Source of the DNA: Escherichia coli
GTDB taxonomy: Bacteria > Pseudomonadota > Gammaproteobacteria > Enterobacterales > Enterobacteriaceae
Assembly: GCF_050920415.1 (NCBI RefSeq)
Contig: NZ_CP169309.1
DNA length: 64,000 nt
Direction: 5' to 3' (one strand)
Shown one piece after another: positions 4,198-59,564 of the stretch (within the stretch, counting starts at the first letter, position 1; each line of letters opens with the position of its first letter). The translations under genes were made by a program, and so were the position numbers. Under the pieces are notes generated by a model that was not told the DNA's origin, did not search any database, and saw nothing but the letters and a program-made list of their open reading frames with translations.

Positions 4198-5547
4198 TTG
4201 GCGGGGTTTAACATCAAACATTGGTTTGCAGATGGCGCGTTTCGCACCATTATTCGCAATAGCGCCTGGTTAGGCTCCAGTAATGTCGTGAGCGCTTTGC
4301 TGGGTCTGTTGGCGCTCTCGTGTGCCGGTAAAGGGATGACGCCCGCCATGTTTGGCGTACTGGTGATTGTGCAATCGTACGCCAAGTCGATCAGCGATTT
4401 TATTAAGTTTCAGACATGGCAGCTGGTGGTTCAGTACGGAACGCCAGCCTTGACCAATAATAATCCGCAGCAATTTCGCAATGTCGTCTCATTTTCCTTC
4501 TCGTTGGATATCGTCAGCGGCGCGGTGGCGATTGTCGGCGGCATTGCCTTACTCCCTTTTCTTTCCCATTCATTAGGTCTGGATGACCAAAGCTTTTGGC
4601 TGGCAGCGCTGTATTGCACGCTCATTCCTTCAATGGCTTCCTCCACACCGACCGGCATTCTGCGTGCAGTAGATCGCTTCGATTTGATTGCTGTACAGCA
4701 GGCGACGAAACCTTTTCTGCGCGCAGCGGGGAGCGTCGTAGCCTGGTATTTTGATTTTGGTTTTGCGGGTTTTGTTATTGCCTGGTACGCATCGAATCTG
4801 GTTGGCGGCACCATGTACTGGTGGTTTGCCGCGCGCGAATTACGCCGCAGAAATATCCATAACGCCTTCAAATTGAATCTGTTTGAGTCTGCCCGACACA
4901 TTAAAGGCGCGTGGAGTTTTGTCTGGTCAACCAACATTGCCCACTCCATCTGGTCGGCACGTAACTCGTGCAGCACAGTGTTGGTGGGGATCGTGTTAGG
5001 ACCCGCTGCCGCCGGGTTATTTAAAATCGCCATGACATTCTTCGATGCCGCCGGAACGCCAGCGGGTTTACTGGGCAAAAGTTTTTACCCAGAGGTGATG
5101 CGTTTAGATCCGCGTACCACCAGACCGTGGTTGTTAGGCGTGAAGTCCGGTTTACTGGCGGGCGGAATCGGTATTCTGGTGGCGCTCGCGGTGTTGATCG
5201 TCGGCAAGCCGCTCATTTCGCTGGTGTTTGGCGTTAAGTATCTCGAAGCGTATGACCTGATTCAGGTGATGCTTGGCGCAATTGTGATTTCGATGCTGGG
5301 CTTCCCACAGGAGTCATTGCTATTGATGGCGGGAAAACAGCGCGCTTTTCTCGTGGCGCAAACCATCGCCTCAATCGGCTACATCGTATTGCTGTTCATG
5401 TTCTGTCATCTGTTTGGCGTGCTGGGGGCTGCATTTGCTTACTTCGGTGGGCAATGTCTGGATGTGGTGCTCTCGTTAATTCCAACCTTAAAGGCATTTT
5501 TTCAGCGCCATTCCTTGCTTTATAACGCAGCCGGAGAGAAATCCTGA
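4198..5547 (+). CDS. yghQ: Multi-pass inner-membrane protein, MOP/polysaccharide-biosynthesis (Wzx/MurJ-like) flippase family
   Basis: 449 aa, highly hydrophobic throughout with many predicted TM segments. The track start is a TTG; the true start may be the internal ATG at about 4333. The stop overlaps the next ORF's start (TGATG). Confidence 0.7.
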   Translation: MAGFNIKHWFADGAFRTIIRNSAWLGSSNVVSALLGLLALSCAGKGMTPAMFGVLVIVQSYAKSISDFIKFQTWQLVVQYGTPALTNNNPQQFRNVVSFSFSLDIVSGAVAIVGGIALLPFLSHSLGLDDQSFWLAALYCTLIPSMASSTPTGILRAVDRFDLIAVQQATKPFLRAAGSVVAWYFDFGFAGFVIAWYASNLVGGTMYWWFAARELRRRNIHNAFKLNLFESARHIKGAWSFVWSTNIAHSIWSARNSCSTVLVGIVLGPAAAGLFKIAMTFFDAAGTPAGLLGKSFYPEVMRLDPRTTRPWLLGVKSGLLAGGIGILVALAVLIVGKPLISLVFGVKYLEAYDLIQVMLGAIVISMLGFPQESLLLMAGKQRAFLVAQTIASIGYIVLLFMFCHLFGVLGAAFAYFGGQCLDVVLSLIPTLKAFFQRHSLLYNAAGEKS

Positions 5548-5993
5548 TGATGAGAAAATATTTCCCGCTTGAGGCGAGCGAGCGTCTATTTATTGCAGTT
5601 GAAGAAGATGATGTCGTTGATGCGCAGGTCAGTTTACCGCCGACTATCGCAACAGGTTGTACCACCGAAATCATTCATGATAATTACGCGTTATGCCTGC
5701 AATTCTGGCTGAATGGCGTTGATCGTCAGGAATTACTGCGTTTAATCCACAAACAAGCCAAAGGCGAGGGGCTTACGGCTGACGAGCGTAAACAGTTTAA
5801 ATATATGCGGGCGCGTTATAAGCATCTACGTTTTGCCCAACGGTTGTATTTAAAAAAGCATCAGGCCGGATTTTTATTTGGCAAAACGACCGTTTTTCTT
5901 GGACGTTTTCAGGACGGCTTTCGTAACGGTAAGAAAAATATTGTGTCGTTTTACGGCAACCTTTTACGGATTTATTTAAGCTCTCCGGTCTAG
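5547..5993 (+). CDS. Hypothetical protein, no recognisable motif
   Basis: 148 aa ORF whose ATG overlaps the yghQ stop (translational coupling), same strand as neighbours. Basic, soluble-looking. Confidence 0.5.
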   Translation: MMRKYFPLEASERLFIAVEEDDVVDAQVSLPPTIATGCTTEIIHDNYALCLQFWLNGVDRQELLRLIHKQAKGEGLTADERKQFKYMRARYKHLRFAQRLYLKKHQAGFLFGKTTVFLGRFQDGFRNGKKNIVSFYGNLLRIYLSSPV

Positions 5994-6371
5994 TTGTTGG
6001 TGAACTATTCATTACGCCATAGCCAGTTAGAAAGCGTAAGCGGTTTTATTGCCTATCGGCAAAAGCAAATGCACCTCCTGAAAGAGATTATTGCCAAACC
6101 ACGGCTAACTGGCAGGGAATTTCATGATGTACGAAAAATAATCAGCCAGCAGGTTTCTTATTACGACACCCTAAGATCGCTTGATCCTGAAAATAAAGAA
6201 GCGTTACAGATTTCCCGCTTCCTCGCCGCCATTAATGGCCTGATGGGGGATAAACACGACGACATGGTGGCGGATGATATGGAAAACCGCCAGTCGTATG
6301 ATGCACCGATGGCGCTGGATAGCGATATTCGTCAGCGCTTAGAACTGCTGATTTCGCGTTTTCCGCTATAA
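5994..6371 (+). CDS. Hypothetical protein, start uncertain
   Basis: 125 aa ORF immediately after the previous stop. The track start is TTG; the first in-frame ATG is at about 6069. No motif recognised. Confidence 0.35.
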   Translation: MLVNYSLRHSQLESVSGFIAYRQKQMHLLKEIIAKPRLTGREFHDVRKIISQQVSYYDTLRSLDPENKEALQISRFLAAINGLMGDKHDDMVADDMENRQSYDAPMALDSDIRQRLELLISRFPL

Positions 6372-6379
6372 CCGGAGCA

Positions 6380-6943
6380 ATGATGTCATCTCGTTTGATT
6401 ATTGCGCTGATTATCATGCTCTTAGCCCCGGGTGTGCAGGCGCACAATTTCGTCACTGGTAAAACGGTTACCCCTGTTTATATCCAGGAAGGCGGCGAGC
6501 TGCTTCTGAATAGCGACGACGAAATTCACTACCAAAAGTGGAACAGCACACAGCTGGCGGGAAAAGTCCGCATTATTCAGTATATCGCCGGGCGTAAGTC
6601 GGCGAAGAAAAAGAACTCACTGTTAATTAAAGCGGTTGAAGCGGCAAACTTTCCGCAGGATCGTTTTCAGCCCACCACCATTGTGAACACCGATGATGCC
6701 ATCTTTGGTACTGGCTATTTTGTCGTTGGCAAAATCGAAAAAAATAAACGCCGCTATCCGTGGGCGCAATTCGTTATTGACGGCAATGGACAGGGACGCG
6801 TTGTCTGGCGGTTGCCGGAGCAGAGTTCAACCATTCTGGTGCTGAATAAAGCCGGGCAAATTCAGTGGGCAAAGGACGGCAGCCTGACGCCGGAAGAGGT
6901 AGATCATGTCATTGCGCTGGCGCAGAAGCTGATCAATGAATAA
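6380..6943 (+). CDS. Secreted/periplasmic protein with cleavable signal peptide, function unknown
   Basis: 187 aa. N-terminus MMSSRLIIALIIMLLAPGVQA|HN is a typical Sec signal peptide. It lies directly upstream of the LptF/LptG-like pair. Any YtfJ-like or LptA/LptC-like assignment is unverified. Confidence 0.6.
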   Translation: MMSSRLIIALIIMLLAPGVQAHNFVTGKTVTPVYIQEGGELLLNSDDEIHYQKWNSTQLAGKVRIIQYIAGRKSAKKKNSLLIKAVEAANFPQDRFQPTTIVNTDDAIFGTGYFVVGKIEKNKRRYPWAQFVIDGNGQGRVVWRLPEQSSTILVLNKAGQIQWAKDGSLTPEEVDHVIALAQKLINE

Positions 6944-6973
6944 AAAACTCAAAGGATTGAGGGCGTTAGTGAG

Positions 6974-8044
6974 ATGAAGCTGGTTGAACACTACATCATG
7001 CGTGGTACGCGCCGTCTGGTGCTGATTATCGTCGGTTTTCTGATCTTTATTTTCGCCAGCTACTCCGCACAGCGTTATCTGACCGAAGCGGCAAATGGGA
7101 CATTAGCTCTTGATGTTGTGCTGGATATTGTTTTCTACAAGGTGCTGATTGCACTGGAGATGTTGTTACCTGTTGGACTGTATGTGTCAGTTGGCGTGAC
7201 GCTAGGGCAGATGTATACCGACTCGGAAATTACCGCTATTTCTGCGGCGGGGGGGAGTCCGGGACGCTTGTACAAAGCCGTTCTTTATCTGGCGATACCG
7301 CTAAGTATTTTTGTCACCCTTCTGTCGATGTATGGTCGTCCGTGGGCTTATGCGCAGATTTATCAACTGGAGCAACAGTCGCAGTCGGAGCTGGATGTTC
7401 GCCAGTTGCGGGCAAAGAAATTTAACACTAACGATAACGGACGAATGATCCTTTCGCAGACGGTTGATCAGGATAATAATCGCCTGACTGACGTGCTGAT
7501 TTATACTTCTACTGCCAATCGAACCCGTATTTTCCGCGCCCGTTCGGTTGATGTAGTTGACCCATCACCCGAGAAACCGACCGTTATGTTGCATAACGGG
7601 ACCGCCTATCTTCTCGATCATCAGGGGCGTGACGACAACGAACAGATCTACCGTAATCTGCAATTGCATCTGAATCCGCTGGATCAAAGCCCTAACGTCA
7701 AACGCAAAGCAAAATCGGTCACGGAGCTGGCGCGCTCCGCCTTTCCTGCCGATCATGCCGAACTGCAATGGCGACAAAGCCGTGGCCTGACAGCATTGTT
7801 GATGGCGCTGCTGGCCATTTCATTAAGTCGGGTAAAACCGCGGCAAGGGCGATTTTCAACGTTATTGCCACTGACGTTGCTGTTTGTTGCCATTTTTTAT
7901 GGCGGCGACGTCTGCCGTACGCTGGTGGCTAACGGCGCGATTCCCCTCATTCCTGGTTTGTGGTTAGTACCCGGACTCATGCTAATGGGCCTGCTGATGC
8001 TGGTCGCACGCGACTTCTCTTTGCTGCAGAAATTTTCCCGATGA
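6974..8044 (+). CDS. LptF/LptG-family (YjgP/YjgQ) permease, paralog 1
   Basis: 356 aa. N-terminal TM helix, then a large periplasmic domain and C-terminal TM bundle, matching the LptF/LptG topology. Stop overlaps the next start (ATGA). Confidence 0.8.
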   Translation: MKLVEHYIMRGTRRLVLIIVGFLIFIFASYSAQRYLTEAANGTLALDVVLDIVFYKVLIALEMLLPVGLYVSVGVTLGQMYTDSEITAISAAGGSPGRLYKAVLYLAIPLSIFVTLLSMYGRPWAYAQIYQLEQQSQSELDVRQLRAKKFNTNDNGRMILSQTVDQDNNRLTDVLIYTSTANRTRIFRARSVDVVDPSPEKPTVMLHNGTAYLLDHQGRDDNEQIYRNLQLHLNPLDQSPNVKRKAKSVTELARSAFPADHAELQWRQSRGLTALLMALLAISLSRVKPRQGRFSTLLPLTLLFVAIFYGGDVCRTLVANGAIPLIPGLWLVPGLMLMGLLMLVARDFSLLQKFSR

Positions 8045-9120
8045 ATGTTTTCAGTCGCTATTTAATTCGTCATCTCTTTCTCGGTTTTGCCGCCGCCGCA
8101 GGGCTATTGCTGCCGCTCTTTACCACCTTCAACCTGATTAACGAACTGGATGATGTCAGCCCGGGTGGTTATCGCTGGACTCAGGCGGTGCTGGTGGTGC
8201 TGATGACCTTACCGCGCACACTGGTCGAACTTTCGCCGTTTATCGCCTTATTGGGAGGGATTGTCGGCCTGGGGCAGTTATCGAAAAACAGTGAGCTTAC
8301 CGCCATTCGCAGCACGGGGTTTTCTATCTTCCGTATTGCACTGGTGGCGCTGGTTGCCGGGATATTGTGGACTGTTTCATTAGGCACGATAGATGAGTGG
8401 GTGGCGTCGCCATTGCAGCAACAGGCGCTGCAAATCAAATCGACTGCCACTGCGTTGGGGGAGGACGATGACATTACCGGCAATATGCTGTGGGCCAGGC
8501 GTGGTAATGAATTTGTGACGGTGAAATCGCTGAACGAGCAGGGCCAGCCGGTGGGCGTGGAGATATTTCATTACCGCGACGATCTCTCGCTCGAATCCTA
8601 CATTTATGCACGCAGTGCCACCATTGAAGACGACAAAACGTGGATCCTGCATGGTGTGAATCATAAAAAATGGCTGAATGGCAAAGAAACGCTGGAAACA
8701 TCTGATAATCTTGCCTGGCAATCGGCCTTCACCAGTATGAATCTTGAAGAGTTATCGATGCCGGGAAATACTTTTTCTGTCCGTCAACTTAATCATTACA
8801 TCCATTATTTGCAGGAAACCGGGCAACCCAGCAGCGAATACCGCTTTGCACTGTGGGAAAAACTGGGACAACCCATCTTGACCCTTGCGATGATTTTGCT
8901 GGCTGTGCCGTTTACCTTTAGTGCCCCGCGTTCGCCTGGGATGGGTAGCCGTCTCGCTGTAGGCGTCATCGTGGGGTTACTCACCTGGAGCAGCTATCAA
9001 ATCATGGTCAATCTGGGATTGCTATTTGCGTTGAGCGCACCTGTTACCGCGCTCGGTTTACCGATAGCGTTTATGCTGGTGGCGTTGAGCCTGGTGTATT
9101 GGTATGACAGTCAACATTAA
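8041..9120 (+). CDS. LptF/LptG-family (YjgP/YjgQ) permease, paralog 2
   Basis: Start taken at the ATG at 8041 (MNVFSRYLIRHLFLGF...), not the longer track ORF from 7960. LGQLSKNSELTAIRSTGFS parallels LptG LGMLAQRSELVVMQASGFT. Periplasmic middle domain and C-terminal TMs. Confidence 0.8.
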   Translation: MNVFSRYLIRHLFLGFAAAAGLLLPLFTTFNLINELDDVSPGGYRWTQAVLVVLMTLPRTLVELSPFIALLGGIVGLGQLSKNSELTAIRSTGFSIFRIALVALVAGILWTVSLGTIDEWVASPLQQQALQIKSTATALGEDDDITGNMLWARRGNEFVTVKSLNEQGQPVGVEIFHYRDDLSLESYIYARSATIEDDKTWILHGVNHKKWLNGKETLETSDNLAWQSAFTSMNLEELSMPGNTFSVRQLNHYIHYLQETGQPSSEYRFALWEKLGQPILTLAMILLAVPFTFSAPRSPGMGSRLAVGVIVGLLTWSSYQIMVNLGLLFALSAPVTALGLPIAFMLVALSLVYWYDSQH

Positions 9121-9121
9121 A

Positions 9122-9148
9122 CCCGCCGTGGCGCAGCACCACAGCGGG
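9122..9148. terminator. Imperfect hairpin at the convergent junction of the two opposing operons
   Basis: CCCGCCGTGG ... CCACAGCGGG with one mismatch, in the 34 bp between the permease stop (9120) and the synthase stop (9155-9157). Confidence 0.3.
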
Positions 9149-9154
9149 CTCACA

Positions 9155-10327
9155 TTACTGCTTCAGAGTAGCAAATGCCTGAATGATGGCATCGATTTGC
9201 TCACGAGTGTGGGCAGCGTTTACGCTACAGCGCAGCAGCGTGATGCCTGCAGGCGCGGCAGGTGGCAGGATAAGATTCACATAAACGCCCAGCGAAATAA
9301 GCTCGCGCCAGATGCGTAAACCTTCCTCTTTCGAACCGATTATTACTGGCACTACCGGGCTAATATGTGAACTTAACTCGTAACCCAGTTTTTGCAGACC
9401 GTCATACAGATGGCTGGCGTTATCCATCAGCTTTTGCCGCAACTCTGGTTGTGAGGCAATGGTTCTTAACGACGAGCGCACGGTCGCAATGCAGGACGGA
9501 GAAGGAGAGGCGGTAAAAATATACGGGCGGCTGCCGTAGCGCAGCACTTCCATCGCTTCCGAACCGACAGCAAAACCGCCAATCGAGGCCAGACTTTTAC
9601 TGAAAGTACCAACGATAATATCCACATCATCTTCAACGCCAACGGCTTCAGCCAGTCCGCGCCCCGTTGCGCCTAACACGCCAAACGAATGCGCTTCATC
9701 GACAATCAAATAACCACCGAGACGACGTTTGATATCAACAATTTCCGCCAGCGGCGCAACGTCACCGAGCATACTGTAGATGCCTTCAACGATGATAATC
9801 GCCTCTTTTGCCCGTTCACCGAGGCGAACCATGCGCCGTTCCAGATCTTTAGCATCGTTATGGCGGAAACGAATAATTTCCGCTCCACCGAGAGAACAGG
9901 CGTCATAAATACTGGCGTGGCTATCGGCATCCAGTAACACCACGGCGTTATGGTCGGCAAGTGCGCTGATGACACCTAAATTAGCGGTATAACCGGTTGA
10001 AAAAACGATAGCGGTAGGGCGATTGAAAAACTCGGCAATCTCTTTCTCTAACGCCAGATGTGGCGCATAGCTGCCATTAGCCATACGAGAACCGGTAGTG
10101 CCGGTGCCTTGTGCCGCTAATGCTGCCTGACCTTCGGTGATGGCATCATGATTGAAAGTTAAACCGAGATAATTATTAGTCCCGGCCAGAATCACTTTTT
10201 TATTGCCGATACGGCCTTCAGTGGCGGAGTACACTTCATCAATACAGGTACCAAACGGCGTTAATCCGTTGTCACTAAATTGCAGTCGCTCGCCAGCAAG
10301 GCGCGCATATTTATCGTATAGCCCCAT
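9155..10327 (-). CDS. PLP-dependent alpha-oxoamine synthase (serine palmitoyltransferase / KBL / BioF family)
   Basis: 390 aa. Motifs DEAHSFGVLGATGRG and GTFSKSLASIGGF (PLP lysine) are hallmarks of alpha-oxoamine synthases. Start overlaps the ACP stop by 1 nt. Confidence 0.85.
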   Translation of the reverse strand: MGLYDKYARLAGERLQFSDNGLTPFGTCIDEVYSATEGRIGNKKVILAGTNNYLGLTFNHDAITEGQAALAAQGTGTTGSRMANGSYAPHLALEKEIAEFFNRPTAIVFSTGYTANLGVISALADHNAVVLLDADSHASIYDACSLGGAEIIRFRHNDAKDLERRMVRLGERAKEAIIIVEGIYSMLGDVAPLAEIVDIKRRLGGYLIVDEAHSFGVLGATGRGLAEAVGVEDDVDIIVGTFSKSLASIGGFAVGSEAMEVLRYGSRPYIFTASPSPSCIATVRSSLRTIASQPELRQKLMDNASHLYDGLQKLGYELSSHISPVVPVIIGSKEEGLRIWRELISLGVYVNLILPPAAPAGITLLRCSVNAAHTREQIDAIIQAFATLKQ

Positions 10328-10575
10328 TATTTATTCTCCAGCCATGGAAGTAGAGTTTCCATTAATTGCGCAGGGGTTTTGACATCCAGCAGAATATTAA
10401 TAGGAATGGAAATATCGAATCTGTCTTCCAGCATCATTAAGAGATCCATCACTTTGATCGACTCCAGGCCAAGATCGTTGACGAGATCGCTGTCGGGCTT
10501 AATTTCCACACCGTTTTCGACCAAATCCTGTAAACAGGAAAGGATGTAATCCATTACTATTTCACGATTTACCAT
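10327..10575 (-). CDS. Acyl carrier protein (phosphopantetheine-binding)
   Basis: 82 aa acidic protein. DLGLESIKVMDL is a candidate 4'-phosphopantetheine attachment site. Lies between the synthase and the reductase. Confidence 0.75.
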   Translation of the reverse strand: MVNREIVMDYILSCLQDLVENGVEIKPDSDLVNDLGLESIKVMDLLMMLEDRFDISIPINILLDVKTPAQLMETLLPWLENK

Positions 10576-10606
10576 AGAAACGTTAACACACCTTTAAACA
10601 AGACAA

Positions 10607-11521
10607 TCAAAATAGCCCGCTGCGTAATGCGTGTTCCAGGCTAATCCCGGGAAACCAATTAATATCTTCAGAAATACGGTTATTACTTGCTGACCAGTCG
10701 GCGTGGGTTAATTCACGGATTTTCGAGCGGGTCAGCATAGGTTCTTTACCTGCCAGGCGACTCAACGCGGTACTGATATCCGCAAGGCAGGTGAGTACCG
10801 ACAGAGGAATACCAACCATTCGAACGGAACCGCAACGGGCGTCGGCGGCAAGTTGCTGTACGCGTTGCCAGTCATAGCCGCCGGCGACGCCATCGCATAA
10901 TTCATAGGTTTGCGTTTGTACAGTTTCGGCGCTTAACCACTGCCCCACGGCTTGCGCGAAATCGGTGACGTGCAGGAAAGAGAGCTGTGTATCTGGCGCA
11001 CCAAGTCGTGGCAGCAGGCCGCGCAGCATCCAGCCAAACAGCGGTTTTAACTCTTTATCGCCGGGACCATACACGGCTGTCGGGCGAAAAATGCCCAGCG
11101 TAATTTCGTCAGCCATTGCGGTCAGTCGTTGTTCGGCGACGTGTTTGGAATTTGCGTACCAGGAGAGTTCGGGATGGCGCGCCGCCAGCGAAGAGATAAA
11201 CAGAAAACGTTGGCAAAAGCCGCTCTCTTTTGCCGCTTGCATCAGGCGCAGGCTGCCGTCAACGTTACAGCGGGTAAAAATCTCTTCTTTGTGTCCGCGC
11301 ACTTGCCCGGCGCAATGGACCACCGCGCTGGCTCCGGCAACCAGTTCGCTAAGCGAATGTGTATCTTCCAGCGAACCGCGCACCCAGATGAGATTATCAT
11401 TGACGTGAGCGCGGGCAGTACGCGTCAATGCGCGAACGTGAAAGCCGCGGGCGAGCAGGTTATCGATAATATATTTACCGATAAACCCGGTAGCGCCCGT
11501 CACCGCGACAGTTTGATTCAT
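10607..11521 (-). CDS. NAD(P)-dependent epimerase/dehydratase-family reductase (extended SDR)
   Basis: 304 aa. N-terminal Rossmann motif VAVTGATGFIG and catalytic YANSK (YxxxK). Start overlaps the ligase stop (ATGA). Confidence 0.8.
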   Translation of the reverse strand: MNQTVAVTGATGFIGKYIIDNLLARGFHVRALTRTARAHVNDNLIWVRGSLEDTHSLSELVAGASAVVHCAGQVRGHKEEIFTRCNVDGSLRLMQAAKESGFCQRFLFISSLAARHPELSWYANSKHVAEQRLTAMADEITLGIFRPTAVYGPGDKELKPLFGWMLRGLLPRLGAPDTQLSFLHVTDFAQAVGQWLSAETVQTQTYELCDGVAGGYDWQRVQQLAADARCGSVRMVGIPLSVLTCLADISTALSRLAGKEPMLTRSKIRELTHADWSASNNRISEDINWFPGISLEHALRSGLF

Positions 11522-13236
11522 GCCATGGATTCCTGCACATGAAGGCTTGCAGCATAACGTTTTTTCGCTTCCGCACGGGCAGGCTTGCCGGAGGACGTTC
11601 GGGGAATACTGTGGGGCGGCAACAGATCGATAGCCGCTGTTACGCCAAATTCGCTTTGGATCCGTGCTGCCAGTGCGTGGATAAGCTGCCCACGACGTTC
11701 TTCGTCGCTGATCCTACACTGGATCTGCAAAATGATTTTTTCCTGGGCGGTAACAAAAGCAATCGCATCGCCAGAATGAATTTCCGGTTCCTGTTCCGCA
11801 ATATATTCAATATCCTGCGGCCAGATATTACGGCCACGAATAATAATCAGATCTTTAATGCGCCCGGTGACATACAGATAACCATCCAGCAGATAACCGA
11901 GGTCGCCGGTATCTAACCAGCCCGTCGCGGCAATCTCGTCTTGCGAAACCTGGTCGCCAAAGTAACCGCTCATCAGGCTGGGGCCGGAGATGCAAATATG
12001 GCCTACCACACGTTCCGCGACCGGCATACCTGCTTCATTGCGGATTTCAATGCCATGTTCCGGCAACGCTTTACCGCAGTTGACGAAAGTCGATACGGCG
12101 CGTGTTTCAGCACCCGGCGCGACGGCTTTGCCCTGATATTCAAGGATGTCGCGATCCACTTCGTTAACCACAACCCCGGAGGCTTCATCAGAGAAGCTGA
12201 CAGCCAGCGCATTTTCTGCCAGTCCGTAGCACGGCATGAAAGTTTTATCGTCAAAGTTAACCTGACGGAAACATTCAGCAAATTGGTGGAGTTGTTCTGC
12301 GGAGATGGGTTCTGCGCCAATACCAGCGACGCGCCAGCACGAGAGATCCAGTTCAGCGAGATCTTTTTCATTCACGCGGCGCTGACACAATTCATAGCCA
12401 AACGGCGGCGCGACGGAAACTGTGCCACGATTTTTACTGATCAATTTAAGCCATTGCAGCGGACGCATGGCAAAATCCTGAGTGCGCAAATAATCTACTG
12501 AGAGCTGCGTGGCGACGGGGGTCAGGAGAAAGCCGACCAGTCCCATATCATGGTAGAAAGGCAGCCAGGAGACGCAGCGGTCGCCAGGGCGTAATTTAAT
12601 GCCATCGTGGCTTATAGCACGTAGATTAGCCATCACTTCGCGATGGGTGATAATGACGCCACGGGGAAAACGGGTGCTGCCGGAGGTGTACTGGAGGTAG
12701 GCGATATCGTTCGGAACTGGACGCTGGAGTACAACATCGGCTTCCGGTAATGCCTTAAACCAGGCGTGGCTTAAAACATGTAATTCGGGGTTGTTATGCG
12801 TAGCAGCATTGACCAGTGGCAACCACTCATCACCAGTGATAATGGCTGCGGGCTGGCAACTAGCCAGTAAACCTTGCAGTTTAGCGCTCCAGGAATCCCG
12901 CTGACCGACGCCCATTGGAATCGCTAACGGGACGGCGACTAAGCCGGCATACTGGCAGGCAAAAAAAGCCTCTACAAACCCGCTACTCGTTTCGGCAATC
13001 AGCGCCACGCGATCGCCTTTTTTCAGATTTAGTGATAACAACCGCTTCGCACCAGCTTCGGCACACGCTTTTAACGTCTGATATTCCAGTTGATCTTCAA
13101 GTTGGCAACGTCTGTCATAAAAATTCATTCCGGCGCTACTCAGAGCGGCGTAGTCCAAAGCATCAACCAGCGTTGGAAAATCGGCATAGCGCATAGGTAG
13201 GGAATGCGTAAAGATGTTATTAGACATATACACCAC
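11518..13236 (-). CDS. Fatty-acyl-AMP ligase / acyl-ACP synthetase (adenylate-forming enzyme)
   Basis: 572 aa. AMP-binding motifs YTSGSTRFPRGV, DTGDLGY and GRIKDLIIIRGRNIWPQDIE. The exact start (Met1, Met4 or Met15) is uncertain. Confidence 0.85.
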   Translation of the reverse strand: MVYMSNNIFTHSLPMRYADFPTLVDALDYAALSSAGMNFYDRRCQLEDQLEYQTLKACAEAGAKRLLSLNLKKGDRVALIAETSSGFVEAFFACQYAGLVAVPLAIPMGVGQRDSWSAKLQGLLASCQPAAIITGDEWLPLVNAATHNNPELHVLSHAWFKALPEADVVLQRPVPNDIAYLQYTSGSTRFPRGVIITHREVMANLRAISHDGIKLRPGDRCVSWLPFYHDMGLVGFLLTPVATQLSVDYLRTQDFAMRPLQWLKLISKNRGTVSVAPPFGYELCQRRVNEKDLAELDLSCWRVAGIGAEPISAEQLHQFAECFRQVNFDDKTFMPCYGLAENALAVSFSDEASGVVVNEVDRDILEYQGKAVAPGAETRAVSTFVNCGKALPEHGIEIRNEAGMPVAERVVGHICISGPSLMSGYFGDQVSQDEIAATGWLDTGDLGYLLDGYLYVTGRIKDLIIIRGRNIWPQDIEYIAEQEPEIHSGDAIAFVTAQEKIILQIQCRISDEERRGQLIHALAARIQSEFGVTAAIDLLPPHSIPRTSSGKPARAEAKKRYAASLHVQESMA

Positions 13237-13598
13237 GAAAAAAATTGGATATCAGAAATAAAATGACAATAATGCGGTGGATTATATAGGCATAAAAGAT
13301 AAATGAGATAGTATTTTCATCGGTGCGATATTGAACATTGATTTAAATAATAGGTTTGGCTTTGTTGTTTTTATTGTGAATTATATTTAATTTATGAATA
13401 TATTAAGAAGAAGCCTTGTTTGGTTGCCTTAAATCGACAAAAGGCATTGAGGCGCTTCTGTGTAGTCTCTGACCTTATCTTAATTATTAATAAATACTAT
13501 TTATTCTTTGTTTGTATTCTTTGGGTTGATTATTAAGATGCCGTTCGTTGCTGTTGCAATCTGTTTGTCACCGTTAATTATTTGTTATCCACAGAGAT
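13237..13598. promoter_or_regulatory. AT-rich divergent promoter region between the ligase operon and yghO
   Basis: 362 bp non-coding stretch with long A/T tracts (for example TTTAAATAATAGG, TTATATTTAATTTATGAATATATTAAG). No ORF. Candidate nucleoid-protein (H-NS-like) silenced promoter. Confidence 0.4.
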
Positions 13599-14741
13599 AT
13601 GGAATGCGATCTGCTGATGATTAAAATTGAAAAAGTAATTAATAAAAATGACCTTAAGGCATTTATCGCTTTTCCGTCATCACTTTATCCCGATGATCCA
13701 AACTGGATACCCCCTTTGTTCATTGAACGCAGCGAGCATTTGTCGGCGAAGAATCCGGGGACGGACCATATTATCTGGCAGGCGTGGGTAGCAAAAAAAG
13801 CGGGGCAGATAGTCGGGCGGATTACCGCGCAAATCGATACCTTGCACCGCGAGCGTTACGGTGACGATACCGGTCATTTCGGCATGATTGACGCCATTGA
13901 TGATCCGCAGGTTTTTGCCGCGTTGTTTGGCGCAGCGGAAGCGTGGTTGAAGTCACAAGGTGCAAGTAAGATCAGCGGGCCTTTCAGCCTGAATATCAAT
14001 CAGGAAAGCGGATTACTGATTGAAGGTTTCGACACTCCGCCCTGTGCGATGATGCCGCACGGTAAACCGTGGTATGCCGCGCATATTGAACAATTGGGTT
14101 ATCACAAAGGTATTGATTTACTGGCGTGGTGGATGCAACGAACCGATCTCACTTTCTCTCCGGCGCTAAAAAAACTGATGGATCAGGTGCGCAAAAAGGT
14201 GACCATTCGCTGCATCAAGCGCCAGCGGTTTGCCGAAGAGATGCTGATCCTGCGTGAGATTTTCAACTCTGGCTGGCAGCACAACTGGGGATTTGTGCCG
14301 TTTACCGAACATGAATTCGCTACCATGGGCGATCAACTAAAGTATCTGGTACCGGACGATATGATCTACGTCGCCGAGATTGATTCTGCTCCCTGCGCGT
14401 TTATAGTCGGCTTGCCGAACATCAACGAGGCGATTGCCGATCTGAACGGAGCGCTCTTTCCCTTCGGCTGGGCAAAATTGCTGTGGCGCTTAAAAGTCAG
14501 CGGTGTGCGAACTGCGCGAGTGCCGCTGATGGGCGTGCGTGACGAGTATCAGTTCAGCCGCATCGGCCCGGTGATTGCGCTGTTATTGATTGAAGCCTTA
14601 CGCGATCCGTTTGCTCGCCGGAAGATCGATGCGCTGGAAATGTCATGGATCCTCGAAACCAATACAGGCATGAATAACATGCTGGAACGCATTGGAGCGG
14701 AGCCGTACAAGCGTTACCGATTGTATGAAAAGCAGATTTGA
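13599..14741 (+). CDS. yghO: YghO-family protein, probably acyl-CoA N-acyltransferase fold (GNAT-like)
   Basis: 380 aa intact ORF. I recognise the name from its position next to glcC. The GNAT-like assignment is from memory of annotations, not from a motif I can point to. Confidence 0.65.
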   Translation: MECDLLMIKIEKVINKNDLKAFIAFPSSLYPDDPNWIPPLFIERSEHLSAKNPGTDHIIWQAWVAKKAGQIVGRITAQIDTLHRERYGDDTGHFGMIDAIDDPQVFAALFGAAEAWLKSQGASKISGPFSLNINQESGLLIEGFDTPPCAMMPHGKPWYAAHIEQLGYHKGIDLLAWWMQRTDLTFSPALKKLMDQVRKKVTIRCIKRQRFAEEMLILREIFNSGWQHNWGFVPFTEHEFATMGDQLKYLVPDDMIYVAEIDSAPCAFIVGLPNINEAIADLNGALFPFGWAKLLWRLKVSGVRTARVPLMGVRDEYQFSRIGPVIALLLIEALRDPFARRKIDALEMSWILETNTGMNNMLERIGAEPYKRYRLYEKQI

Positions 14742-58613: not shown

Positions 58614-59564
58614 TTACTGCTGCTGTAAACGTGCTTCGATGGCATCCATTAACATACCGGTGATCGACACCGGAAACTCTGCTTCAATCTCACGAATACA
58701 GGTTGGGCTGGTGACGTTAATTTCAGTCAGACGGTCGCCGATGATATCCAGACCAACAAAAATCAGCCCTTTTTCTTTCAGCGTCGGTCCGATCTGACGG
58801 GCGATTTTCCAGTCACTTTCCGTCAGCGGACGAGGTTCCCCGCGACCACCGGCAGCCAGGTTACCACGGGTTTCGCCGCCTTGTGGAATACGCGCCAGGC
58901 AGTACGGCACCGGTTCGCCATCCACCACCAACACGCGTTTGTCGCCATCTTTAATGGCTGGCAGGTAATTTTGCGCCATGCAGTAGCGAGTGCCATGCTC
59001 AGTCAGGGTTTCGGCAATCACGCCGAGGTTTGGATCGCCTTCTTTCACGCGGAAAATCGACGCGCCGCCCATACCGTCAAGCGGCTTAAGAATGATGTCG
59101 CTGTGTTTCTCCCAGAACGCTTTCAGCTGTGCTTTATTGCGCGTAACCAGCGTTTCTGGCGTTAAGTCAGAGAACCAGGCGGTAAACAGTTTCTCGTTAC
59201 AGTCGCGCAGGCTTTGCGGCTTGTTAACGATCAGCGTCCCTTTCTCTTCGGCACGTTCCAGAATATAGGTCGCGTAGATAAACTCGGTATCAAACGGCGG
59301 GTCTTTACGCATCAGGATCACATCGAGATCGGCCAGCGGCAGATCCTGTTCACCGACGAACGAAAACCACTCTTCGTAGTTCTGCTTCACGTTCAGCGTG
59401 CGGGTATGGGCGCGGGCTTCGCCATTGATCAAATACAGATCGCCCATCTCCATATAGTGAAGTTCGTAACCACGACGTTGTGCTTCCAGCAACATAGCGA
59501 AACTGGAATCTTTCTTGATGTTGATGCTTGCGATGGGGTCCATCACGATGCCGAGCTTGATCAT
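58614..59564 (-). CDS. gshB: Glutathione synthetase (ATP-grasp)
   Basis: 316 aa, MIKLGIVMDPIASINIKKDSSFAMLLEAQRRGYELHYMEMGDLY. Confidence 0.95.
   Translation of the reverse strand: MIKLGIVMDPIASINIKKDSSFAMLLEAQRRGYELHYMEMGDLYLINGEARAHTRTLNVKQNYEEWFSFVGEQDLPLADLDVILMRKDPPFDTEFIYATYILERAEEKGTLIVNKPQSLRDCNEKLFTAWFSDLTPETLVTRNKAQLKAFWEKHSDIILKPLDGMGGASIFRVKEGDPNLGVIAETLTEHGTRYCMAQNYLPAIKDGDKRVLVVDGEPVPYCLARIPQGGETRGNLAAGGRGEPRPLTESDWKIARQIGPTLKEKGLIFVGLDIIGDRLTEINVTSPTCIREIEAEFPVSITGMLMDAIEARLQQQ

Follow-up and report, generated by a model that had tools for sequence, protein, structure and literature searches.

The AT-rich region described here separates two divergently oriented sets of genes in Escherichia coli, within a window of 64,000 nucleotides, the whole stretch of DNA that was analysed. 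Annotation was taken from the identical sequence of E. coli MFDS1022581 (NZ_CP169399.1), whose record positions exceed those of the window by 769,960. On the left, four overlapping or closely spaced genes occupy 9155-13227 and run leftward on the minus strand: aasR (11518-13227), the first gene of the operon and the orthologue of ECD_02851, encoding a fatty acyl-AMP ligase (FAAL), or specialised acyl-ACP synthetase; cerR, or epi (10607-11521), of the NAD-dependent epimerase/dehydratase family; acpR (10327-10575), encoding an acyl carrier protein; and spt (9155-10327), encoding serine palmitoyltransferase, which acpR overlaps by 1 bp. On the right, yghO (13617-14741, annotated as 13599-14741) lies on the plus strand and encodes an N-acyltransferase that is, from its annotation and published orthology, a candidate ceramide synthase. 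The FAAL protein scores 871 bits against NCBIfam PRK09192 (cut-off 600) and Spt 599.6 bits against the equivalog NF047599 (cut-off 500). NCBIfam matches of CerR, from the epimerase/dehydratase family, are all sub-threshold, and YghO matched nothing in Pfam, NCBIfam or the PDB sequences, its homologues, most of them 374 residues long, being labelled N-acetyltransferase or GNAT.

These flanking genes are the published dihydroceramide genes of E. coli, aasR-cerR-acpR-spt leftward and yghO rightward. In BL21(DE3) they were described by Padilla-Gomez et al. 2022 (PMC9386255) as aasR (ECD_02851), epi (ECD_02852), acpR (ECD_02853), spt (ECD_02854) and yghO (ECD_02850), with YghO given as the orthologue of the Caulobacter N-acyltransferase CC_1154 and the reductase as that of CC_1164, and 3-oxo-sphinganine was formed when E. 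coli AasR, AcpR and SPT were co-expressed (PMC9386255). The spt, dedicated acpR and aasR genes of the Caulobacter-type (Rhodobacterial) ceramide gene set are thus all present. The neighbourhood of the operon also includes paralogues of lptF and lptG, a gene resembling a flippase, and yghR/S/T, and the yghR/S/T-yghQ-lptF/G-spt-yghO block resembles the Caulobacter cluster for sphingolipid synthesis and transport (PMC11324152).

The aasR start is best placed at ATG 13227, which is preceded by a GGTG Shine-Dalgarno-like element (13231-13234, minus strand, 3 nt before the ATG) and gives a protein that fits PRK09192 from profile position 4. The start chosen by PGAP varies by strain, being 13227 here and the equivalent of 13194 in ATCC 8739, N3 and AHM21. 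For yghO, the start common to other genera is ATG 13617, yielding the usual 374-residue protein. The annotated ATG at 13599 (MECDLL...) is peculiar to Escherichia; other genera have AAGG before the ATG equivalent to 13617, an element that E. coli lacks. Since aasR starts at 13227 and the conserved yghO start is at 13617, the spacer extends over about 13228-13616 (389 bp). A sequence-only reading of this DNA had delimited a 362-bp stretch, 13237-13598; the spacer is real, and its limits are best moved outward. Its placement between divergent transcription units agrees with the annotation of NZ_CP169399.1, in which the start codons face apart.

Base composition of the spacer

The original 13237-13598 interval has 29.6% GC, compared with 51.9% for the whole window, 52.4% for the FAAL gene and 50.7% for yghO, so the region is indeed, as had been proposed, far more AT-rich than the coding DNA around it. 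AT content is 69.5-70.4% over the 362-389 bp of the spacer, and in 100-bp windows of at least 62% AT the whole AT-rich patch spans 13161-13732, taking in the first codons of both genes and running approximately 120 bp into yghO. Sliding-window analysis makes the spacer the second most AT-rich 362-bp stretch of the 64 kb, behind only the glcA-sslE spacer: 232 of 63,639 overlapping windows are this low or lower in GC, and all of them lie in one or the other of these two regions. Runs of A/T at least 8 bp long occur at 29 per kb in the patch and 2.9 per kb in the window, and TpA steps make up 10.3% and 4.2%, respectively.

Among 70 annotated intergenic regions of at least 100 bp, sampled from 214 kb of the same chromosome (mean 42.9% GC, sd 7.3), the aasR-yghO spacer is third lowest in GC (z = -1.8), and it is the lowest of the 24 divergent spacers sampled, whose mean is 39.4%. 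Several other spacers in this sample have 30-32% GC. The spacer is therefore in the low tail of the distribution and is no outlier. Two further AT-rich spacers lie nearby, the divergent yghT-yghS spacer (2477-2649, 31.2% GC) and the region upstream of pitB (1-368, approximately 32% GC), next to genes of 45-53% GC.

Constraint, variation and distribution

Constraint within the spacer was assessed in an alignment of nine Escherichia sequences, comprising typical E. coli, cryptic clades and E. whittamii, using as yardstick 337 third-codon positions in the flanking genes, 137 of them polymorphic (41%). On the aasR side (13237-13330) only 10 of 94 columns vary, significantly fewer than at the third-codon positions (Fisher p = 9e-9), with invariant blocks at 13239-13253, 13264-13288, 13292-13320 and 13332-13343. 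By this comparison a module of approximately 105 bp (13239-13343, minus strand) is under strong purifying selection within Escherichia. At its centre is a perfect TATAAT, the predicted -10 hexamer of the aasR operon (13281-13286, minus strand; position-weight-matrix score 8.6), which is invariant in the nine sequences, and 17 bp from it a weak predicted -35, ATCTCA (13304-13309, minus strand), matches at three of six positions. The conserved footprint covers about +35 to -70 around the predicted aasR start site near 13274. Because a perfect TATAAT is combined with a poor -35 and with conserved DNA reaching to approximately -70, we infer that the footprint fits a promoter needing an activator, upstream contacts or a particular condition.

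The remaining two-thirds of the spacer, approximately 270 bp proximal to yghO (13331-13598), is polymorphic in 131 of 274 columns against 41% at third-codon positions (p = 0.09) and evolves about neutrally. Within it a better-conserved island (13373-13411, 90% pairwise identity) contains promoter-like elements on both strands, predicted as GTGAAT-17-TATATT on the plus strand and TTAATA-15-TATAAT on the minus strand. A stock sigma-70 scan returned one site where 3.4 were expected, and no terminators were found. On the yghO side only weak or distant promoter candidates were predicted, and no strong promoter. The description of the spacer as a divergent control region is supported by start codons that point away from each other, by an arrangement kept in other genera and by the 105-bp footprint on a perfect -10 hexamer.

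The yghO-proximal part occurs as two haplotypes, A and B, which are approximately 75-80% identical, differ by several indels and do not track species labels. Type A is found in typical E. coli, Escherichia sp. MOD1-EC7003 and E. whittamii, and type B in E. coli AHM21C2872I, Escherichia sp. E1V33 and strain SCPM-O-B-8794. As the haplotypes cut across species labels, recombination of spacer haplotypes across lineages is suggested.

The divergent layout of the aasR operon and yghO is kept in nine other enterobacterial genera, among them Shimwellia, Citrobacter (C. amalonaticus), Pluralibacter, Pseudocitrobacter, Serratia, Klebsiella (K. indica), Cedecea and Hafnia. Their spacers are 271-818 bp long, with a GC content that is in every case 14-27 points lower than that of the flanking genes. 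A 200-bp core has 22-33% GC in most genera, the minimum in Serratia being 36-38%. The Serratia spacer has 42% GC overall (58% AT), so the conserved trait is the GC drop relative to the flanks and not an absolute AT content of the grade expected for H-NS. In 12-mer footprinting of eight genera against shuffles only the ribosome-binding block beside aasR (ATACACCAYG), in which the GGTG element lies, stands out (z about 5). Between genera, then, AT-richness is conserved and sequence is not. In Shimwellia, Pluralibacter, Serratia and Klebsiella indica the spacer measures 700-820 bp, roughly double that of Escherichia. In Shimwellia pseudoproteus another contig carries a further homologue of yghO (73% identity), and neither aasR nor spt nor acpR was detected within 6 kb of it. 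On a 430-bp contig of Macrococcus sp. DPC7161 with coverage below 1, a piece of YghO agrees at 99% with that of E. coli, almost certainly because E. coli DNA contaminated the assembly.

In E. coli K-12 MG1655, window positions 5267-13638 (8,372 bp) are missing and an IS5 stands in their place. The gap covers the 3' part of yghQ, two hypothetical genes, the lptF/lptG paralogues, spt, acpR, cerR, aasR, the spacer and the first codons of yghO, and the right-hand junction of IS5 with yghO is at TTAA 13639-13642, which lies at the patch edge within the AT-rich 5' end of yghO. An IS5-associated deletion has thus removed the ligase operon and the entire control region from K-12. The control region is carried along with the ceramide genes by 4154 of 5426 complete genomes. 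The body of yghO is found in 4553, leaving approximately 400 that, like K-12, lack the spacer. IS5-family insertion hotspots of E. coli fall in H-NS-bound DNA (PMC11335895). We considered whether the spacer is itself an insertion-sequence hotspot in the population, and this was ruled out, as it is intact in 4135 of the 4154 carriers.

The strain studied is itself divergent from most E. coli: its gshB (58614-59564) is at least 99% identical in four of 5425 genomes and approximately 98% identical in typical ones, and its glc region is 95.6% identical to that of K-12. Its true place may be in a cryptic Escherichia clade filed as E. coli. Between yghD and yqgA the window carries a tRNA-Phe gene (41275-41350), which we take to be pheV, a frequent integration site of pathogenicity islands; there is no island at this position.

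Candidate silencing by H-NS and StpA

The sequence-only reading had proposed that the spacer is a target of nucleoid-associated silencing, which would keep the pathway cryptic under laboratory conditions. At approximately 70% AT over 450-570 bp the patch has the composition and length expected of DNA silenced by H-NS and StpA (approximately 65-70% AT or more over several hundred bp). The high-affinity H-NS nucleation motif tCGATAAATT (Lang et al. 2007, PMC2094087) is not enriched in the spacer, where a single 8/10 site (13389-13398, minus strand) compares with 1.4 expected from Markov shuffles (P = 0.75). Curvature predicted in a wedge model places the spacer mean at the 67th percentile of the window, with one local peak at 13304-13312 above the 99th percentile.

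Unlike H-NS-silenced islands, whose flanking genes are low in GC, the locus has flanking genes of 52.4% (FAAL) and 50.7% GC (yghO). The spacer is therefore not part of a low-GC island, and the AT-rich DNA available for an H-NS filament to extend along would be limited. Repression by short patches of H-NS is often no more than weak. In enterotoxigenic E. coli (ETEC), H-NS bound a 460-bp AT-rich promoter fragment and not its 93-bp core, binding that needs flanking AT-rich DNA (PMC4287617); as 460 bp sufficed there, the aasR-yghO patch would be long enough. The glcA-sslE spacer (24189-24682), 11 kb away and the most AT-rich of the window (28.9% GC over 494 bp), serves as a positive control for composition, since the sslE promoter region is repressed by H-NS/StpA, more at 22 °C than at 37 °C (PMC5012682), and is also listed in PMC2094087.

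Published expression experiments bear on how quiet the locus is. In BL21(DE3), SPT alone or Caulobacter AcpR and AasR alone gave no 3-oxo-sphinganine, and E. coli SPT accepts Caulobacter acyl-AcpR (PMC9386255). As partial gene sets yielded no product, the chromosomal genes are not detectably active at 30 °C in rich medium. The sphinganine- and ceramide-like spots seen in BL21 were credited by the authors 'possibly' to the chromosomal reductase and YghO (PMC9386255), and given this possible activity the locus would not be fully silent. A literature search found no paper tying yghO or the locus to H-NS, nor ChIP or hns-mutant data for it, and the ChIP-seq study of H-NS in ETEC H10407 lists no targets of the protein in text or supplements. 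K-12 data cannot help on this locus because the region is deleted there. From composition, binding of H-NS to the spacer is probable, and silencing of the ceramide genes by H-NS is plausible. For H-NS as the chief cause of the pathway's quietness, we see a real possibility that falls somewhat short of even odds.

A shared regulatory spacer and its alternatives

The data as a whole are best explained, with a probability we put at about 0.5, by a shared regulatory spacer of the dihydroceramide genes that has two unequal parts and is subject to H-NS dampening. This one spacer would regulate both aasR-cerR-acpR-spt, leftward, and yghO, rightward. Its aasR module of approximately 105 bp would be a promoter requiring an activator or a particular condition, and the approximately 270 bp of DNA at about 70% AT towards yghO is a near-neutral stretch holding many weak promoter-like hexamers and no strong promoter. 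With 450-570 bp at approximately 70% AT, the patch is of a type that in E. coli becomes coated by H-NS and StpA. H-NS probably binds it and would dampen both promoters, and H-NS together with the intrinsically weak promoters may keep the output of the pathway from rising above the detection limit in laboratory culture.

Much of the same evidence can be read without special silencing. An ordinary divergent spacer could owe its AT-richness to relaxed constraint, AT-biased mutation and the content of promoters, UP elements and 5'-UTRs, its genes being expressed at low level from weak promoters or for want of an activator, with any H-NS binding incidental. Two-thirds of the spacer does change at the rate of third-codon positions, conservation across genera is limited to the ribosome-binding block, and what persists, even in GC-rich Serratia, is a drop of 17-25 GC points relative to the flanks. 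Divergent spacers in this genome average 39% GC, several others having 30-32%. The spacer has no excess of the H-NS motif and is of average predicted curvature, the -35 of the aasR operon is poor, and for yghO the scans predicted no good promoter. However, it would be unusual in E. coli for DNA of approximately 70% AT over about 0.5 kb to escape H-NS, the equally AT-rich region upstream of sslE is under H-NS/StpA control, and the IS5 of K-12 sits at the edge of the patch. We regard this combination of weak promoters and incidental H-NS binding as possible and, on balance, doubtful.

A more specific control is improbable. On this account the spacer would mainly be the target of a dedicated regulator, either ArcA at a repeat on the yghO side or an activator at -35 to -70 of the aasR promoter, and ceramide synthesis would, if so, be tied to oxygen, growth phase or envelope stress. 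The invariant DNA at 13292-13343 upstream of the poor -35 is in keeping with such an activator. Of 18 transcription-factor and sigma consensus sequences that were scanned, one gave a candidate: an ArcA-box-like direct repeat, GTTAATTATTTGTTA (13573-13587, plus strand), 30 bp before ATG 13617, which agrees with the consensus at 13 of 15 positions. Nowhere else in the 64 kb is there a match with two mismatches or fewer, 0.10 being expected. It is kept at 11-13 of 15 positions in the five Escherichia sequences scored, type B included, amid the variable right-hand part of the spacer. Its P value of 0.02 is, however, uncorrected and not significant after correction for 18 motifs, and the repeat has no counterpart in other genera, among which no footprint of a regulator is shared. 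We take it as a lead only. Consensus scores were no better than shuffles for Fur, CRP, FNR, PhoB, PhoP, RcsB, CpxR, PmrA and FadR, nor for OmpR, SlyA, Lrp, IHF, Fis, LexA and sigma-54.

Nor is the spacer likely to conceal a gene. A small gene, an sRNA or a cis-regulatory RNA such as a yghO leader or riboswitch is disfavoured, indeed very improbable, and the original description of the stretch as non-coding holds. Use of the promoter-like site near 13376-13404 would give yghO a 5' leader of approximately 190 nt, and the spacer does contain two 38-residue open reading frames. However, indels between the Escherichia haplotypes disrupt both frames, and no conserved reading frame was found in the spacer or in the longer spacers of Serratia and Shimwellia. 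An Rfam scan of 12800-14000 gave no match at E≤1, folding of the GC-richer centre gave z values of -1.0 to +1.2 on both strands and in both haplotypes, a repeat search returned short AT-rich chance pairs only, and substitution is neutral-like in rate.

The preferred reading, a shared spacer dampened by H-NS, can be set beside known systems. The sslE (yghJ) region lies in the same neighbourhood and is nearly identical in composition and size (28.9% GC over 494 bp, compared with 29.9% over 371 bp here), and both regions precede genes for accessory envelope functions, which K-12 either lacks or keeps silent. They differ in that H-NS/StpA binding and repression are experimental at sslE and predicted from composition at the aasR-yghO spacer, in that the sslE region is among the most curved in the wedge model and the aasR-yghO spacer is average, and in that the sslE promoter is unidirectional and the aasR-yghO spacer divergent. 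Another parallel is the leuO-leuLABCD spacer of the same genome, also divergent and AT-rich (32.3% GC over 656 bp), a region controlled by H-NS and LeuO; it is served by a dedicated antagonist, LeuO, whereas the ceramide cluster contains no regulator gene. With proU and bgl (Lang et al. 2007) the spacer shares AT-richness, dense TpA steps and long A/T runs, and IS5 is associated with both bgl and the aasR-yghO locus, but proU and bgl carry several good tCGATAAATT matches and secondary sites in place of the one chance-level 8/10 site found here. The Caulobacter crescentus cluster (CC_1165-CC_1162 and CC_1154) comprises the same five enzyme types, adjoined as in E. coli by lptF/lptG paralogues and a flippase; unlike its Caulobacter counterpart, the E. 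coli candidate for cerS, yghO, stands back to back with the aasR operon across a common spacer.

In type, the spacer is an ordinary AT-rich divergent promoter region and belongs to a well-known class. What the analysis adds is that it is tied to published ceramide genes, that constraint is confined to the aasR-proximal 105 bp with a well-placed -10 while the rest drifts, and that K-12 has lost the whole unit. A stronger proposal is that the patch is a genuine H-NS/StpA switch, silencing a complete ceramide pathway in about three-quarters of E. coli strains and relieved by temperature, osmolarity, oxygen or an activator acting on the aasR module. We consider this unlikely, if worth stating: were it true, removal of H-NS or the right cue from host or environment would place a sphingolipid in the E. 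coli envelope. Sphingolipid production is not generally associated with E. coli, yet the control region and the ceramide genes occur together in 4154 of 5426 complete genomes, and the enzymes work from plasmids. The value of the spacer is that of a handle and not of a new type of element. Finding what quiets or activates the native genes would be the practical route to the natural product and to its role, whether in the envelope or in interaction with the host.
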